Shown: piece after piece, positions 6,967 to 21,598 of the stretch
How the letters are laid out: the number at the start of each line of letters is the position of its first letter
How positions within the stretch are numbered: the stretch's first letter is position 1
From: a virus
IMG/VR virus record: IMGVR_UViG_3300015371_000013
Span: 16,502 to 80,501 of that record
Length of the DNA: 64,000 nt
Reading direction: 5' to 3' (one strand)
Program-made: the position numbers and the translations under genes
Notes under the pieces: model-generated
Told to the model about the DNA's origin: nothing
Database searches by the model: none
The model's input: only the letters and a program-made list of their open reading frames with translations

Positions 6967-7031
6967 GGATTCCTCCTGGATAGGGTAGCTTTTCATTATA
7001 GGAGGGGTTTTTCCCGCGATCTCACCCGGAC

Positions 7032-7132
7032 AAAAAAGAAAGCCTGTGCGAGAATGAACTCTAAGGTTACTCACAGGTGTCTATCGCATTATTTCTCCAA
7101 AGCCTTGGATCGGCGGGCAATAGCACTCTTTC
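7032..7132 (-). ncRNA. putative cassette-borne structured sRNA (~100 nt)
   Basis: No RBS/ORF between motif 7131 and the U-tract at 7032. Stems GAAAG/CUUUC, GUGCUAUUGC/GCGAUAGACAC, UCCAA/UUGGA, CCUGUG/CACAGG. Confidence 0.65.
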
Positions 7133-11849: not shown

Positions 11850-11882
11850 CTCTCCTAGGCCTTTCTCGAACTTGGGTGGACG

Positions 11883-11920
11883 AAAAGAAAAAGAGATTCC
11901 GAATCAACGGATCTCTCTTC
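11883..11920 (-). terminator. hairpin/U-tract directly after motif 11919 (empty cassette)
   Basis: GAGATCCG-TTGATT-CGGAATCTC-TTTTTCTTTT begins right after TATAATGA. Confidence 0.7.
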
Positions 11921-11949
11921 ATTATAGGGGATGTTTTTCCCGCGAATTT

Positions 11950-12135
11950 TCAGCGGTCGTTCTTCCGATGGATTTCGAGCCTCTCGCCAGGCTTGAATCG
12001 GCATCGCCCTAATTTTCCCTCCAAGGTGGTAAGGCCTATCTCACTGGGGGTAACCCATCTCACAGACACCACGTCGGTGACTGCGAAAACGACCTCCTCG
12101 GTTTCCTCATCGACAAATATGAGTTCGAAGGTCAT
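11950..12135 (-). CDS. hypothetical protein (61 aa)
   Basis: ORF track restarted at MTFELIF; a 29-aa ATGA-coupled ORF (12132-12221) lies upstream. Confidence 0.65.
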   Translation of the reverse strand: MTFELIFVDEETEEVVFAVTDVVSVRWVTPSEIGLTTLEGKLGRCRFKPGERLEIHRKNDR

Positions 12136-13067: not shown

Positions 13068-13083
13068 CAGATTCCTTTCTGAG

Positions 13084-13163
13084 AAAAAAGAGAGAGAAGG
13101 GAATCTATCCAATTCAATGGCGTATTCCTTTGCAAGCCAACAGTCAGTTGGCTCTTCTCTCTC
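13084..13163 (-). ncRNA. putative cassette-borne sRNA (three-way junction)
   Basis: After motif 13162: closing stem GAGAGAGAAG/CUUCUCUCUC plus U-tract; arms AGCCAAC/GUUGGCU and GGAAU/AUUCC. Confidence 0.7.
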
Positions 13164-13190
13164 ACTATACGGCGTGTTTTCCCCGCGTGA

Positions 13191-13571: not shown

Positions 13572-13596
13572 GATGACTCCTTTATGGATTGTGGAT

Positions 13597-13684
13597 AAAA
13601 AAGAGAGACCCATCTCCTCCTGCTGTCGTAGCATGGCTTCGTTGGCAGGTCGCGTAGCATAGCTTCGCTGTGGAGATAGGTCTC
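13597..13684 (-). ncRNA. putative structured sRNA with duplicated hairpin
   Basis: 13-bp closing stem GAGACCUAUCUCC/GGAGAUGGGUCUC plus U-tract; both arms carry CGAAGC(U/C)AUGCUACG. Confidence 0.7.
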
Positions 13685-13691
13685 AAAATAT

Positions 13692-13813
13692 AAAGAAACC
13701 CCAGCACATTGCTCTACCTGGGCGCAATGCACTAGATAGAGTTAGGTGGGCACTCGAGGTACTTTTTACACCGTAGCCTGAGCGCAATGCATCAGACTAA
13801 CTGCTGGGGTTTC
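13692..13813 (-). ncRNA. putative cassette-borne sRNA (~120 nt)
   Basis: After motif 13812: 12-bp closing stem GAAACCCCAGCA/UGCUGGGGUUUC; UGCAUUGCGC(U/C)CAGG occurs twice. Confidence 0.7.
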
Positions 13814-13830
13814 ATTATACCACGGGTTTT

Positions 13831-14238
13831 CTACGCGAATACGGAATTCGGCAAAGCCGCAAACCGTTCTTGTAACCCGTGAATATCCTGAGCAATCTCA
13901 CGAGCGTTTTTGCCAACAACGGCTGCAGCTCGATTGATGCTCGGATAAGGTTCGCCAGTCAGCTTGTCCAAAACAGGAATTGGCTCACGACAAGCTCTTT
14001 TTACGAGGGCTATCTGGGTGATCTTGGGCTTCCAGATAATCAACGCCGTATTCTTTGCTTTCTGCTGTATCTCAAGCGGCAAACCGTTGAGACGAAGTAG
14101 AATGGTGGTCGCAGTGACAGAAGAGCCCACCGCGAGACATCCTGCGCCGACGAGATACACCTTCTTGTTCTCCTGCAGATGCTGCTTAACCCGCTCGATC
14201 TTGGTACGATCGTCCTGCTTTTCTCCTTCCTGACTCAT
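13831..14238 (-). CDS. TM segment plus NUMOD1-like HTH protein (paralogue of 17824-18204)
   Basis: KQHLQENKKVYLVGAGCL shared with the paralogue; C-terminal TGEPYPSINRAA; the stop codon lies inside motif 13812. Confidence 0.75.
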   Translation of the reverse strand: MSQEGEKQDDRTKIERVKQHLQENKKVYLVGAGCLAVGSSVTATTILLRLNGLPLEIQQKAKNTALIIWKPKITQIALVKRACREPIPVLDKLTGEPYPSINRAAAVVGKNAREIAQDIHGLQERFAALPNSVFA

Positions 14239-14399: not shown

Positions 14400-14421
14400 G
14401 ACTCTCCTTGTCGCCCGAGGG

Positions 14422-14485
14422 AAAAAATGAAAGAGATCACAATTTCGAATATGCGATTACAGGAGCCTTTCTCCTTCTCTTTCAT
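14422..14485 (-). ncRNA. putative cassette-borne sRNA (three-way junction, ~60 nt)
   Basis: AAUGAAAGAG/CUCUUUCAUU closing stem plus U-tract; arms AGGAG/CUCCU and AUCGCA/UGUGAU. Confidence 0.6.
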
Positions 14486-16068: not shown

Positions 16069-16520
16069 AGACTGATTCCACTCTGGGTACTCATGTAGCG
16101 CGCATCAGGCCAGATTCCCTTGCGATGAAGATCCAGCCGGTCGGCGTCCCAACAGGTGGCGATAGTGGGATTGATCGCTCTTTGACCAGAGCTATGCTCC
16201 ACACAGGCCTCGAACAGTAGTTCTATTTGCTCATCGAAAATATAGCGATGGAGATGCTCTTGCGTCTTGTAGAAGCGTTCCCACAATCGATACCCTCGAT
16301 TTCCATGATCAGGATCTTTACCATCGTTTACCCGCATGGAGTCGTGAAATAAAGCGTACAACGCCACAACTTCCATGTCGGCGCCGGTTTCATACCCGTT
16401 TAGCATCTGAGCGTTCTGCCAGACCCTAAACCAATGGTCAAGACCATGGAGTCGACTCTGGAGAACGTTCAGGGTTATAGACTCGCCCAAGACAAAGGGA
16501 ACGCAATGACTGGCGAGCAT
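16044..16520 (-). CDS. HD-domain phosphohydrolase
   Basis: HGLDHWFRV, LFHDSMR, DHG and CWDADRLDL motifs. Confidence 0.85.
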   Translation of the reverse strand: MLASHCVPFVLGESITLNVLQSRLHGLDHWFRVWQNAQMLNGYETGADMEVVALYALFHDSMRVNDGKDPDHGNRGYRLWERFYKTQEHLHRYIFDEQIELLFEACVEHSSGQRAINPTIATCWDADRLDLHRKGIWPDARYMSTQSGISLCMTRITP

Positions 16521-17436: not shown

Positions 17437-17643
17437 CTACGACTTGTTGAGCTTGGCGGTCTCGAGGTTGAGCTTGGCGGTCTCGAGCTGCATCTGGTTC
17501 ACCTTGAGGCCTGCGTACACGGACGCGCCGGTCAGAGCCACGGGAATGACGATCCACGCGGTCATGATGGCGGCATCCTTGATGCGCTGCTTCTTGGTGG
17601 GCTTGGGCGGCTCGACGACCTTGGGGGTCTCGGGCTCGGACAT
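17437..17643 (-). CDS. cassette-borne membrane protein (68 aa)
   Basis: MSEPETPK..., AAAAGGAG RBS, TM segment, C-terminal LETAKLN x2. Confidence 0.75.
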   Translation of the reverse strand: MSEPETPKVVEPPKPTKKQRIKDAAIMTAWIVIPVALTGASVYAGLKVNQMQLETAKLNLETAKLNKS

Positions 17644-17692
17644 GCAACACTCCTTTTGTAGTGGTTTCATTATGAACTGTGAAATATCCGCG

Positions 17693-17797
17693 AAAGAAAA
17701 GAGAGAGCCACCTACCAACGACTTATAGAAGTTGGGATCCGACCCCCTTAAAGGGGATCTCGTCAAGGCGACTTAGAGAAGCCTAGATGACTCTCTC
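17693..17797 (-). ncRNA. putative cassette-borne sRNA (four-way junction)
   Basis: 14-bp closing stem GAGAGAGUCAUCUA/UAGGUGGCUCUCUC (2 G-U) plus U-tract; three arms, two with CUUCU(C/A)UAAGUCG; bracketed by motifs 17796 and 17667. Confidence 0.75.
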
Positions 17798-17823
17798 ACT
17801 ATAAAGCGTGAATATGGCGCGAA

Positions 17824-18204
17824 TTATATGGTGATACGTTCGAAGTGCAACCCATTCGCATGCGGGTATTTACCGTTCAGATGCTGTGAAAGGTTAGTTT
17901 CCGAGATGCCCTTCGCCAAAGCGGCCTCTGCTTGGCTGCTCCACTTCTCCAGAGTTTCGAGACATCGTACTGGATTAGCCGGGTAATTGCGCTGGTTCAA
18001 ATACTTGATGACCACGTCGACATTCTTTGACTTATTGACTATCAGACCAATGTTGTCAGTACCATTGAACGTCTGAATTACATTGGGGCTTGACACCCCG
18101 CGCAGCAAATATCCCGCGGTAAGACATCCTGCACCAACCAAGTAAACCTTCTTGTTGTCCTTCAAATGCTGCTTGATCTTCTGATAACGCGTAGACTCTT
18201 CCAT
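17824..18204 (-). CDS. TM segment plus NUMOD1-like HTH protein
   Basis: PVRCLETLEKWSSQAEAALAKGIS..NLSQHLNG...GLHFER resembles NUMOD1/IENR1. Confidence 0.75.
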   Translation of the reverse strand: MEESTRYQKIKQHLKDNKKVYLVGAGCLTAGYLLRGVSSPNVIQTFNGTDNIGLIVNKSKNVDVVIKYLNQRNYPANPVRCLETLEKWSSQAEAALAKGISETNLSQHLNGKYPHANGLHFERITI

Positions 18205-18259
18205 GATTTCCTTTAGTTCGTTTGAATAAAAAAGGAAAGCCCCTTTTCGGGGCTCGCCT

Positions 18260-18421
18260 TTAGGCGTAGATCTGAACGACGCCGGGGACGAGGGTGGTCT
18301 CAGCCAGCTTGGCCTGGGACTTGGTGATCATTCGCTCGTACTTGTACACCGCACGGATAGTGCGGAGAACGTTGACGTTTGCGTTGATCTCGGTCTTAAC
18401 GGCCTTGATGGGATGGAACAT
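18260..18421 (-). CDS. cassette-borne small protein (53 aa)
   Basis: Manual ORF MFHPIKAVKTEIN..., AAAGGAG RBS. Confidence 0.7.
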   Translation of the reverse strand: MFHPIKAVKTEINANVNVLRTIRAVYKYERMITKSQAKLAETTLVPGVVQIYA

Positions 18422-18508
18422 AATGGTCTCCTTTGGTGGTTTAGGTCTTCATTATGTACCATGTTTTTCACGCGAAAAAGGAAAGCCCGTGCGGACTCTC
18501 CTTAGAAA

Positions 18509-18706
18509 TTACTTCACCTGGTTGGAAGCTGCCTTGAGGGTTTCGAGGACGATCCTCTTGTCGAGCATCTTGTACGAGATGAATGAGTTGGCGACTGCGG
18601 TAGCACAGTAGATGGAAAAGCATCCGAGTACTAGCTTTTGGCTGCCAGTCATCATCATGATACGAGACCTCCTAAGAGGCTCACGGGTTTCGTTTGACTC
18701 GGGCAT
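18509..18706 (-). CDS. cassette-borne membrane protein (65 aa)
   Basis: AGGAGAG RBS; lies between motif and terminator. Confidence 0.7.
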   Translation of the reverse strand: MPESNETREPLRRSRIMMMTGSQKLVLGCFSIYCATAVANSFISYKMLDKRIVLETLKAASNQVK

Positions 18707-18794
18707 AACTCTCCTAGAGTTGATAGTGGTTTCATTATAGCCTGTGAAAAGTATGCGAAAAACTGAAAGCCCGGGTTAGGGGCTCTCAGTTTGA

Positions 18795-18932
18795 TTAGCT
18801 GCTCTTCTTCGAAAGCAGATGATCGGCGATGACGATTGAACTCGTTGCCAGCGTAAGCCACGCACTGGCCCGAGTGGCCCGATGGGCGTGGGGGGCGGTG
18901 ACGTGGATGACGGCGGCGAGCTTGTTCTTCAT
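18795..18932 (-). CDS. cassette-borne small protein (45 aa)
   Basis: Manual ORF MKNKLAAVIH..., GAAGGAG RBS. Confidence 0.7.
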   Translation of the reverse strand: MKNKLAAVIHVTAPHAHRATRASAWLTLATSSIVIADHLLSKKSS

Positions 18933-19030
18933 GGCAAATCTCCTTCTGATAAGAGGGTTTACTTTTCATTAGAAGCTATGAAATATCCGCGAAAAACCTA
19001 GAGACCGGGTTAGGGTCTCAGGGTTTTGAA

Positions 19031-19222
19031 CTAGAACTTACGGGCGATGATGACTTGGGAGTTCGGCTCGAGTGCGGCCAGAGCATCGACATGTTCCTGG
19101 ATGCGGCGCTGACGCTCCTGCTCTTCCCCAGCTGCAGCGAATGCAGTGAGGGTGAACAGAGCGGCGCCACCCAGGGCCTTGCCGGTGTTGCGGGCGTACT
19201 TCTTGGCGGTTTCCTTGGTCAT
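19031..19222 (-). CDS. cassette-borne membrane protein (63 aa)
   Basis: AAAAGGAG RBS; hydrophobic segment. Confidence 0.75.
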   Translation of the reverse strand: MTKETAKKYARNTGKALGGAALFTLTAFAAAGEEQERQRRIQEHVDALAALEPNSQVIIARKF

Positions 19223-19322
19223 GGTTTTTCTCCTTTTGAGTTTGATTTAGTTCTCATTATAAGACATGAAAATTACGCGAAAAAAGAAAGAAAGAGAATC
19301 CGATGCGGACTCCCTTCTTGAT

Positions 19323-19454
19323 TTAGACCTGCGAGGTGTACTGGTGACCAACGTCTTGTAGACTGGCGTACACGTCCATTGCAAATATGCTTCCCATCGC
19401 GAGGATGGTGAGCAGGATTACAACGAACATGAGGCGTCCGAGGGACAGGGTCAT
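19323..19454 (-). CDS. cassette-borne membrane peptide (43 aa)
   Basis: Manual ORF MTLSLGRLMFVVILLTILAMGSIFAM..., AAGGAG RBS. Confidence 0.7.
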   Translation of the reverse strand: MTLSLGRLMFVVILLTILAMGSIFAMDVYASLQDVGHQYTSQV

Positions 19455-19542
19455 GAGGTATCTCCTTGTTTAGGTTTGGTTTCATTATACTCCATGAAAT
19501 ATGCGCGAAAAAGGAAAGCCCGTGCGGACTCTCCTGTTGAGG

Positions 19543-19761
19543 TTACTTCTTGGGGTTAATGTTCTCGACAGCGCGCCTGGCGGAAGTGAGAGCGATCTGC
19601 TCCTCGAGGTACATGATGCGGGCATTGACCTTGTTGGTGTGGCTCTCGCTAGCGGCAGGGCTAGCGGAAAGCTGCCAACGAGTCATTTCGGCATTCAGGT
19701 ACTCGAGGATGGCATCAAGCTTCTCAACTTCTGTAATAGGCTTACGGGTCTTGAAAAACAT
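19543..19761 (-). CDS. cassette-borne helical protein (72 aa)
   Basis: AAGGAG RBS; lies between motif and terminator. Confidence 0.75.
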   Translation of the reverse strand: MFFKTRKPITEVEKLDAILEYLNAEMTRWQLSASPAASESHTNKVNARIMYLEEQIALTSARRAVENINPKK

Positions 19762-19842
19762 GTTGACTCCTTGATAGTGGTTTCACTATAATCCATGAAA
19801 TATGCGCGAAAAAGGAAAGCCTGGGTAGGCTCTCCTGTGAAA

Positions 19843-20019
19843 CTAATTGTTCTGCTGGGAAACGTCGGCTTCGAACTTGCGCTTATTTCGGCGGTCCAGA
19901 TAGTTGACGAATCCGATACCCACGACGATCAGAGTAGCGTTGAGGGCAACGTACTGAACGGGGTGACTACGAATCCAGTCGTACTGGACCTCCTGAGACT
20001 TGCGGTAAAGCTTGAACAT
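19843..20019 (-). CDS. cassette-borne membrane protein (58 aa)
   Basis: MFKLYRKS..., one TM segment. Confidence 0.7.
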   Translation of the reverse strand: MFKLYRKSQEVQYDWIRSHPVQYVALNATLIVVGIGFVNYLDRRNKRKFEADVSQQNN

Positions 20020-20113
20020 TGGAGTTCTCCAGTGTAGAGGTTTGGTTTCATTATAACCCATGAAATATGCGCGTAAAAAAAGAGAAGCCGGGTTAGGACT
20101 CCTCTCTAACGAT

Positions 20114-20347
20114 CTAATCGATGGGAATCAGGTCGTAGTGAAATCGCGGAAAGCCGATACGTCTCATCTGGAAACGATAACGACCGGGCGGCACGGTGCG
20201 GAAATCTCCGTCCTGACACATGTTCATGAAAGTTCCGTGAAGAATCTTTTCTTTTTGTGTCGGGTCAGAGGTGACATAGGCAACGTGGGCCACATCGTCG
20301 TCGTTTATAGTGACGAGAATATAGGGTTTTGACGATTTTCGAAACAT
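20114..20347 (-). CDS. cassette-borne hypothetical protein (77 aa)
   Basis: GAAAGGA RBS. Confidence 0.75.
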   Translation of the reverse strand: MFRKSSKPYILVTINDDDVAHVAYVTSDPTQKEKILHGTFMNMCQDGDFRTVPPGRYRFQMRRIGFPRFHYDLIPID

Positions 20348-20434
20348 GATGTTCCTTTCGGGTAGGTGTCATTATAAGCTGTGAAATGTTCGCGAAAAAA
20401 GAAAGTCCCGGATTGAGACTCTCTTTTTGACTAC

Positions 20435-20683
20435 TTACACGACAGGACTCGCTTCGTTGAGGACGAAGATGTTGAGGCGATCAGAAGTCCACTTGAGAGC
20501 ATCTCCTGGATTGTCCAGCAGCTTCTGGAGATTCTCAGGGCTGACCGAGAGGAACAGATCGCTGGTGTTGTTGGACATCAGGCGATGTGCTCCTACGGCT
20601 CCTGCAATAACTCCAGCACCGTAGACGATGACAGTGTGATGCTTCCGATAGAACTTCTTAGCACGTTGGTACTTGTCGTTCAC
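20435..20683 (-). CDS. cassette-borne membrane protein (82 aa)
   Basis: GTG start VNDKYQ after AAAGGAG. Confidence 0.7.
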   Translation of the reverse strand: MNDKYQRAKKFYRKHHTVIVYGAGVIAGAVGAHRLMSNNTSDLFLSVSPENLQKLLDNPGDALKWTSDRLNIFVLNEASPVV

Positions 20684-20777
20684 GAAATACTCCTTTGAGT
20701 AGTAGGTTGTCACTATACCCCATGAAATATGTGCGAAGACAAAAAGAGAAGCCGCGTTAGGGCTCCTCTCTTTGAGA

Positions 20778-20999
20778 CTACTTCACCATGTAGATGGCGT
20801 AGCCGTGTCCAACGACTTTGACACTCATCTCGAACAGGTCATCGTGGTCAATGATCCTGTGGTTTGTGGTATCGGTGGGGCCATCGATCTCGAAGACGAA
20901 CCAGGTATGTTCTTCTTCAATCTCGGGACGGACGCCACCGTTCAGAACCTGGATCAAATCCAGAGTGTTCTGTTCGATGGGAATGGCGTATGTGGACAC
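20778..20999 (-). CDS. cassette-borne hypothetical protein (73 aa)
   Basis: GTG start VSTYAIP after AAAGGAGG. Confidence 0.7.
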   Translation of the reverse strand: MSTYAIPIEQNTLDLIQVLNGGVRPEIEEEHTWFVFEIDGPTDTTNHRIIDHDDLFEMSVKVVGHGYAIYMVK

Positions 21000-21194
21000 G
21001 AAAATCCTCCTTTGGTTAGGTGTGGTTTCACTATAAACCATGAAATATACGCGCCAGTATTTACAGTAAATGCGAGTCAGTATCTGGACTTTTCACCAAA
21101 ATTACCCCCCGGGAATTTTTTGATAGTGAAAAAAAGAGAGGCTGTGTTTTTCACACGAACCTCTCTCTTCGATAACTTATTTCAGGATTTGGCG

Positions 21195-21545
21195 TTACGA
21201 TCGAGGCTTCATCACGAAGCCAAGCGCGGATCTGCTTCTGATCACATGTTCGCGCTCGTAGCGGGCCAACCAGAGGATCCCGAAGATATTGGCGGCGACG
21301 ACAAGCACGGTGTCCGGGCTGATCTGCTTGCTGAATCCGAATCGTCGTTCATCCGCCAGTTCCTGCTCTTGTTTTTTCAGTTTGGCGGTCTGTTCGACTT
21401 CTTCGATCTTCAGTTTGTGCAGCTCGGAAATATGCTTGACAATCGATGCGTATTCCTCGGAGGTCTTCGCATGGTTTGGCAGCTCTTTGAGGGCGGCTTG
21501 GATCTCAGCATCGAGCTTGGTCTCGATTTGAGTCTTGATAAACAA
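21195..21545 (-). CDS. cassette-borne membrane protein (116 aa)
   Basis: ISPDT.LVV.ANI.GIL....YE...VI.S.ALGFVMK motif, typical of the first post-lysis gene in this group. Confidence 0.8.
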   Translation of the reverse strand: MFIKTQIETKLDAEIQAALKELPNHAKTSEEYASIVKHISELHKLKIEEVEQTAKLKKQEQELADERRFGFSKQISPDTVLVVAANIFGILWLARYEREHVIRSRSALGFVMKPRS

Positions 21546-21598
21546 TTACTCTCCTTTGATAGGGTTGTCATTATAGGCTGTGTATCAGCCGCGAAACC

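Follow-up and report, generated by a model that had tools for sequence, protein, structure and literature searches.

Small RNAs that present one short hairpin motif several times are known from CsrB, RsmY and RsmZ, whose GGA loop motifs bind CsrA/RsmA, and from the ToxI/ToxN pair, in which a repeated RNA motif lies beside the gene of the protein thought to bind it and the RNA is in excess. In the N-boxB systems of phages lambda and P22, a phage-specific small protein is paired with a short RNA hairpin whose sequence varies between related phages, and p16.7 of phage phi29 is a protein of ~130 amino acids (aa) that joins a membrane helix at its N-terminus to a nucleic-acid-binding domain at its C-terminus and binds DNA non-specifically. 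Racrs are promoter-driven small phage RNAs made of repeat-like hairpins (PMC10651486). Here we describe a putative small structured RNA gene of ~100 nucleotides (nt) from an uncultured, actinobacteria-type phage, located at 17797..17693 on the minus strand of a 64,000-nt stretch of IMG/VR virus record IMGVR_UViG_3300015371_000013 (positions 16,502 to 80,501 of the record; this whole stretch is called the window), which displays the same irregular hairpin top twice and lies directly behind the gene of a membrane-anchored helix-turn-helix (HTH) protein, P0001.

Like CsrB, RsmY and RsmZ, the candidate is a small RNA that has a promoter and a terminator to itself and presents a single short hairpin motif repeatedly, so that it could hold several copies of one protein; it differs in lacking GGA loop motifs, in its presumed partner, a membrane-anchored protein with an HTH of the homing-endonuclease type, in forming one module with the partner gene, and in having a motif that varies from phage to phage. 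A sponge of the CsrB/RsmZ type was rejected because GGA occurs in neither repeated loop, and the only Rsm-like signal was a chance-level RsmY match elsewhere in a relative. With ToxI/ToxN the locus shares the repeated motif beside a protein gene, but here the repeats are non-tandem, the gene order is opposite, no endoribonuclease is present, and the hairpins are carried on a four-way junction. The boxB hairpins stand in messenger RNA (mRNA) leaders and serve antitermination, whereas here the hairpins are doubled in a closed, terminated RNA and the protein combines an HTH with a membrane helix. By description, P0001 and phi29 p16.7 have a similar layout, although p16.7 has no cognate RNA gene. 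The RNA differs from Racrs in that no likeness to any repeat of the CRISPR type was found, and in that the tops vary among phages of a single host strain.

RNAfold predicts that 17693-17797(-) forms a four-way junction with a minimum free energy of -43.4 kcal/mol (z = -4.96), a stability reached by 0 of 200 dinucleotide shuffles, and the fold of the antisense strand is 7 kcal/mol worse (Table 1). This minimum-free-energy structure reproduces the minus-strand 14-bp closing stem with three arms that a preliminary description had proposed, and sequence and fold alike bear out its claim of a 13-nt motif kept on two stems. The motif, CUUCU(C/A)UAAGUCG, is present as CTTCTCTAAGTCG and CTTCTATAAGTCG, which match at 12 of 13 positions and lie 50 nt apart on separate arms with different lower stems (GGC/GCC and CCAAC/GUUGG). 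Each repeated hairpin contains a 2x2 internal loop (UU/UC) below a 2-bp stem and a triloop, so that the irregularity earlier called a bulge is an internal loop; the three arms drawn earlier also stand, with the corrections that arm 1 is closed by GGC/GCC, the A once assigned to it belonging to the closing stem, and that arm 3 has 5 bp. These are the only two copies of the motif with 0-1 mismatch in the 80.5-kb genome, and when the 105 nt were shuffled 5000 times, a direct repeat of this quality (13 nt, at most one mismatch) appeared in 24 cases. The central arm (CCCCUUUAAGGGGGUC) bears a marginal likeness to a hairpin of the type found in phages Pepy6 and Gravy (L025:1926-1947), which 2 of 300 shuffles match in score.

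The unit is self-contained from promoter to U-run, as had been claimed. Its promoter begins one base past the upstream stop codon and ends in the hexamer TATAGT at 17803..17798, and the 14-bp closing stem runs directly into UUUUCUUU, forming an intrinsic-terminator-like end by its predicted fold that is homologous to the terminators of the neighbouring cassettes. Despite the cloverleaf shape, the unit was rightly held not to be a transfer RNA: ARAGORN found 0 genes in the window, the closing stem has 14 bp and not 7, and the T/D consensus is lacking. A Y-RNA-like identity also failed the ARAGORN and Rfam tests, and reading the tops as anticodon loops fits only a few of the related modules described below. 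At the gathering score, Rfam 15 gave no match in the window, nor was there one at E<=5 over the contig containing the locus (L001), and the related RNAs of isolate phages were likewise without a match.

Table 1. Minus-strand features of the RNA locus, its flanks and the second module in the window.
Feature	Position	Strand	Remarks
P0001 gene, 126 aa	17824..18204	minus	Open reading frame; without own promoter, behind a terminator
RNA promoter, TTCGCG-N..-CACGCTTTATAGTGA	17796..17823	minus	Phage-family type; 4 mismatches to window consensus
Closing stem, 5' half, GAGAGAGUCAUCUA	17784..17797	minus	14 bp; first base directly after promoter hexamer
Arm 1	17767..17783	minus	GGC / UU / CU-CUA-AG / UC / GCC; motif copy 1, 17781..17769
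Arm 2	17741..17759	minus	GAUCCCCU-UUA-AGGGGGUC; central hairpin, non-repeated
Arm 3	17715..17735	minus	CCAAC / UU / CU-AUA-AG / UC / GUUGG; motif copy 2, 17731..17719
Closing stem, 3' half, UAGGUGGCUCUCUC, and U-run	17693..17714	minus	Two G.U pairs in stem
U-run, UUUUCUUU	17700..17693	minus	Directly 3' of closing stem
Next promoter	17667..17694	minus	0 mismatches to consensus; begins right after the T-run of the RNA
68-aa membrane-protein gene	17437..17643	minus	Driven by promoter 17667..17694
P0001 paralogue, 135 aa	13831..14238	minus	31% identity; tblastn E 2e-11
Two RNA domains directly 3' of paralogue	13594..13813	minus	Free of open reading frames; second module in genome
Paralogue RNA domain B1	13813..13685	minus	TGCATTGCGCYCAGG twice
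Paralogue RNA domain B2	13684..13594	minus	CGAAGCYATGCTACG twice

P0001 has a basic N-terminus, a hydrophobic helix at about residues 18-38 and a C-terminal HTH of the I-HmuI/NUMOD-like kind. Residues 70-126 are modelled by AF2 with a predicted local distance difference test score (pLDDT) >90, and the best fold matches of this C-terminal domain are I-HmuI (1u3e) and the DNA-binding domain of I-TevI; a sequence profile search of the PDB gave nothing significant. We found 33 homologues, the closer ones 60-82% identical, among them a 66%-identical protein that matches PF22083 (I-HmuI_NUMOD-like, E 6.5e-6), and those from isolate phages are annotated as HTH protein, membrane protein or 'HNH endonuclease'. 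Protein-based locus searches of IMG/VR with P0001 or close relatives found none. Across most of the family, including members from Gordonia and Rhodococcus phages, a cysteine is kept within the hydrophobic helix (G-x-x-C-L). The same genome encodes a paralogue of P0001 followed by two RNA domains, B1 and B2, each of which doubles a different 15-nt motif (z -4.66 and -6.04, respectively); the promoter of this RNA, at 13839..13812, overlaps the stop codon of the paralogue.

This arrangement recurs at 15 phage loci, at each of which a gene of ~125 aa encoding an N-terminal hydrophobic helix and a C-terminal HTH of the I-HmuI/NUMOD-like kind is followed by a promoter at or over its stop codon and then by an RNA free of open reading frames, in which a stem starting right after the TATAAT hexamer closes two or three hairpins. 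The carriers comprise IMG/VR relatives (G002, G003, L022, L023/L024), the Gordonia isolates recovered by tblastn (Avazak/Captrips, Artorias, Perkunas, Petito, Pherobrine, Rickmore and Gravy) and the Rhodococcus phage ReqiPepy6. In the isolates the RNA always falls in an unannotated gap behind the gene, which holds the TATAATGAGA promoter, a clamp (the closing stem) extending from the G after the hexamer to the U-run, and two or three hairpins. Of the 19 RNA units behind these genes, 14 contain a directly repeated stretch of 13-24 nt (at most one mismatch between copies), and none of 8 promoter-to-terminator RNAs without open reading frames elsewhere in these genomes has one longer than 10 nt; the module RNAs are all far more stable than their shuffles (z -2.9 to -6.1). 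Our RNA shows the same features: it lies directly 3' of a P0001-family gene, its promoter hexamer abuts the clamp, it ends in a U-run, and its tops are doubled. These regularities make the P0001-family HTH protein the candidate partner of the doubled hairpins. Within ReqiPepy6, the 365-nt unannotated gap between gp065 and gp066 (L025:1873-2237) contains three consecutive RNA domains, one in common with Gravy, one with three hairpins and one with two; the last of these carries the CCUUUAUGAGG top, the same as in Artorias, Perkunas and G002.

The preliminary description had argued for selection on the doubled top, and the homologous loci favour that claim: in 12 of the 15 modules, analogous RNAs behind homologous genes repeat a motif of 13-24 nt two or three times, and in the copies of the Gordonia DJ phages all tops switch together. 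RNAalifold, applied to an alignment of six DJ-phage RNAs, shows that they share one four-way junction of a clamp and three arms, as in our RNA, with 36 consensus pairs, 15 of which have compensatory double changes. Covariation extends to the clamp (for example, CCCAC/GUGGG versus AGGAAC/GUUCCU) and to the lower stems of the arms, which differ in sequence while keeping their pairing. Between Avazak and Artorias the RNA scaffold is identical, and of 13 differences in the RNA, 12 come from a single set of four substitutions that recurs in all three tops, one substitution pair being a G-C to U-A compensation; the adjacent genes differ at 41 positions in their last ~118 nt, which encode the HTH, versus 7 in their first ~280 nt.

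Throughout the family, the type of HTH helix goes with the type of top. The helices ..SL(A/Q)KISRN.. and ..AMSRH.. accompany CCUUUAUGAGG-type tops, ..HLSQISKH.. accompanies the CCGUUAUACGG top and ..SLSRISQN.. the CCCGCCUAUCGGG top; the ..ARISEHL.. subfamily (Pepy6 and Gravy) has another RNA in common, and in our module the P0001 helix ..GISETNLSQHLNGK.., of a type that some homologues share, is accompanied by CUUCUMUAAGUCG. In Avazak, Captrips, Artorias, Perkunas, ReqiPepy6 and this genome, each motif is confined to the RNA gene that carries it, and five different tops occur among phages of one host strain, Gordonia rubripertincta NRRL B-16540.

On these grounds we propose, as a reading whose chances we hold to be even, that the RNA is a multivalent cognate ligand, either a decoy or a scaffold, for the adjacent HTH protein. 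The RNA would be transcribed from its own phage-family promoter, with the G that follows the TATAAT hexamer or a neighbouring base as its start, and the enzyme would probably be the two-barrel RNA polymerase of the phage itself, described below. Its 5' and 3' ends would form the clamp, followed by the U-run, and the clamp would display the same irregular hairpin top twice; the neighbouring protein's HTH domain would recognise the two tops as its cognate sites, such that one RNA could hold two protein molecules (three in relatives). A decoy or titrating role with RNA in excess of protein appears likelier than that of an assembly scaffold, because the RNA has a promoter and the protein gene has none, which fits an RNA made in excess, because the motif occurs nowhere else in the phage genome, and because multivalency is typical of decoy RNAs. 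More tentatively, and with our doubts outweighing our confidence, we suggest that a membrane-tethered HTH of the homing-endonuclease type (NUMOD/I-HmuI-like) has been re-used as a sequence-specific reader of RNA hairpins, with tops and recognition helix re-programmed in concert, in a family of protein-RNA pairs within the phage supercluster marked by two-barrel RNA polymerases. If true, phages would have a ribonucleoprotein module of a new kind, with a possible part in phage-phage or phage-host conflict.

Several observations weigh against this proposal. HTH domains of this kind are known to bind double-stranded DNA, not RNA, and by the positive-inside rule the basic N-terminus would be cytoplasmic, so the HTH could lie outside the membrane, a placement that would exclude RNA binding; ReqiPepy6 gp065 is indeed annotated 'periplasmic'. 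HTH and tops might switch together because they are linked on a single recombination tract, and not through co-adaptation. Three of the 15 modules are without clean doubling (L022, Gravy and Qui), the Arthrobacter phage Qui having the gene and the promoter and no RNA. The antisense strands of the DJ-phage RNAs fold as well as or better than the RNAs themselves, because C.A mismatches become G.U pairs on the opposite strand. Finally, the covariance model R1, derived from the DJ RNAs, detects the Pepy6 domains with E 2.6e-19 and 1.4e-15 and scores our RNA at only 8.5 bits (E 0.22, filters off), so that class membership of the latter rests on context and architecture: judged by these, it is an analogue or a very diverged relative of the DJ RNAs, and homology is not demonstrable.

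Of the alternatives to a ligand RNA, the one that survives best holds that the motif copies act as double-stranded DNA sites for the NUMOD-type HTH, whether as operators, iterons or a membrane-attachment site, and that the fold is secondary or concerned with termination only; we consider it unlikely. The DNA-binding character of the HTH speaks for it, and I-TevI uses such a DNA-binding domain as an autorepressor. The tops, moreover, are imperfect palindromes whose symmetric changes would also suit a dimer on DNA, and the location beside the gene of a binding protein, followed by a T/A-rich stretch, recalls phage and plasmid origins. However, the lower stems differ between arms yet stay complementary and covary, as do clamps of 10-14 bp, features for which duplex DNA has no need; G.U pairs in the stems of this phage favour the transcribed strand; the 26-nt spacing corresponds to one hairpin and not to a whole number of helical turns; and the units share the exact promoter, clamp and U-run frame of other RNAs without open reading frames.

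Since the closing stem and U-run are homologous to the terminators of all neighbouring genes and the next promoter follows directly after the U-run, the unit might also be an elaborated intrinsic terminator or insulator between cassettes, its arms a neutral loop insertion devoid of function in trans. We regard this as improbable, as the promoter of the unit transcribes nothing else, relatives keep the tops identical and change them in concert, one protein family is linked to such RNAs at 15 loci, and the folds are far more stable than shuffles. Still less probable, in our judgement, is a trans-acting antisense RNA whose identical loops pair with mRNA of the host or the phage, or imitate a hairpin of a host RNA. 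Exposed identical loops are typical of multi-seed small RNAs, and targets in the host are conceivable, but the phage genome contains no complementary site with 0-1 mismatch and its 2-mismatch matches are at control level; five tops among related phages of one host strain are hard to square with a fixed host target, and the linkage to the HTH gene would be left unexplained.

We give little credence to a type III-like toxin-antitoxin pair in which the RNA would be the antitoxin and the membrane/HTH protein the toxin, a reading suggested by the repeated RNA motif beside a small protein gene and by an arrangement that would give an excess of RNA over protein: the motif copies do not form tandem units of 34-45 nt, gene and RNA stand in the reverse order, the neighbouring protein is without a ToxN/AbiQ-like nuclease fold and without a PADLOC hit, and the carriers are lytic phages. 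A Racr or mini-array whose hairpins mimic a host CRISPR repeat and poison Cas proteins is hardest to credit, for although the repeat-unique-repeat layout with a promoter in a phage recalls Racrs (PMC10651486) and a Firmicute-phage contig (L016) has two 36-nt repeats, 64 nt apart, with the same 13-mer in a hairpin, the motif pair occurs in no CRISPR array among 185,579 species genomes nor in IMG/VR (an indirect test), its other matches are tandem repeats in coding sequence, conservation is limited to 13 nt, five tops are found in phages of G. rubripertincta NRRL B-16540, and the locus has not even a weak match to the Rfam CRISPR-DR models. The ties to CRISPR repeats, type III antitoxin repeats and mRNA operators that had been proposed for the motif were looked for and did not materialise.

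The exact scan for the paired motif found none in IMG/VR, 4 matches in metagenomes and 2 in species genomes. Four of these six are coding tandem repeats, and the other two, L016 and L017, are two-copy repeats of 36-37 nt that are compatible with chance. In L016, a siphophage contig encoding Sipho_Gp157, a DUF927 primase and a GH25 lysin, the two repeats (11886-11985) lie at the contig end and hold the 13-mer in a 7-bp hairpin; they could represent a mini-array, a Racr-like unit or chance.

The module is an accessory element, to judge from related contigs. Its slot (window 17668-18227), flanked on one side by the terminator of a 53-aa gene and on the other by the 68-aa gene's promoter, is hypervariable in near-identical relatives: in the closest relative, G002, the slot is empty and the terminator of the 53-aa gene joins the promoter of the homologue of the 68-aa gene; in a metagenomic relative with near-identical flanks, 431 other bases replace the 560-nt module; and a third relative has another hairpin there. 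One contig from another metagenome run is identical over the RNA; among the metagenome-run contigs we saw this identical copy and relatives with other slot cargo, and no variants of the RNA.

The gene-RNA module is undescribed: nothing in Rfam 15 matches it, and in the searchable literature we came across no account of it, the only related items there being the genome announcement of phage Vardy, which reports a 50-bp promoter motif with five copies in a DJ phage (PMC9671010), and a preprint on RNA polymerases (10.1101/842583). If the pairing of gene and RNA is real, it would constitute a new class of phage non-coding RNA, give a function to a gap left unannotated in dozens of sequenced SEA-PHAGES genomes, and show that a homing-endonuclease DNA-binding fold reads RNA hairpins with a switchable code. 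Because the module is present in cultured lytic phages whose Gordonia and Rhodococcus laboratory hosts are harmless, and apparent specificity swaps occur naturally between near-identical phages, as between Avazak and Artorias, the idea is directly testable.

The promoter of the RNA belongs to a family that runs through the genome. Its block is present in the window in at least 12 copies within 3 mismatches of the consensus, versus 0 expected, and the core CACGNNNTATAATGA occurs 10-15 times in a single orientation in this phage, Avazak, ReqiPepy6 and Qui, with 0-1 copies in controls. This core is common to phages of at least three host genera, Gordonia, Rhodococcus and Arthrobacter (window 17667-21595(-), W01, W05 and W06). 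From 21600 to 17400 the window consists of head-to-tail cassettes, each made of a promoter block (TTCGCG..TATTTCA..TATAATGA), an AAGGAG leader, a gene of 43-116 aa, a hairpin and a T-run, and the closing stem and T-run of the RNA are the same element as the terminator hairpins between all neighbouring small genes. Transcription probably starts at or next to the G that follows the hexamer, because clamp pairs 5-7 nt past the hexamer covary and clamps start at the hexamer boundary. The position of the first clamp base, immediately behind the hexamer in all these RNAs, suggests a phage-polymerase promoter that starts at that G, and we infer that such a start fits a phage-polymerase promoter better than a sigma-70 -10 box.

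A candidate for this polymerase is encoded upstream of the window, where a 959-aa open reading frame (L014:561-3440(-), genome 561-3440) gives weak Pfam matches to RdRP (PF05183) and sigma-70 region 4. Its homologues, 45-49% identical, are found in Gordonia DJ, Streptomyces, Arthrobacter and Lactococcus P078-type phages, and some are annotated 'RNA-dependent RNA polymerase'. A preprint describes the family as putative YonO/crAss-like two-barrel RNA polymerases and as the signature of an actinobacteriophage supercluster (10.1101/842583). The fixed frame of promoter, clamp and U-run bears on how this putative polymerase would start and stop.

The window belongs to a complete 80.5-kb virus record of a siphovirus-type phage with genes for a tape measure protein, TerL and a protease-capsid fusion. 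Streptomyces and Gordonia phages have TerL proteins 79-81% identical to this one, and genome size and G+C content resemble those of the Rhodococcus cluster CC phages, of which Pepy6 has 76.8 kb and 53.4% G+C (PMC13313380). A blastn search of the region against isolate phages gave no match, and the stretch is present in contigs of rhizosphere metagenome runs.

Other RNAs without open reading frames accompany these promoters. Two IMG/VR relatives carry one of ~130 nt with its own promoter and no adjoining HTH gene (L011:7376-7506(-) and L013:4445-4574(+), the latter equal to L010:2144-2275), in which a clamp AAAGGAG/CUCCUUU encloses four hairpins (z -2.8). On the minus strand of the window, promoter-to-U-run units without a doubled motif lie at 14415-14483, 13080-13167, 11878-11920 and 7028-7132; these units could be attenuator-like leaders, because several precede promoterless genes. 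In one of them the promoter is directly followed by a plain hairpin terminator (11946..11883), and another forms a three-way junction (13167..13080).

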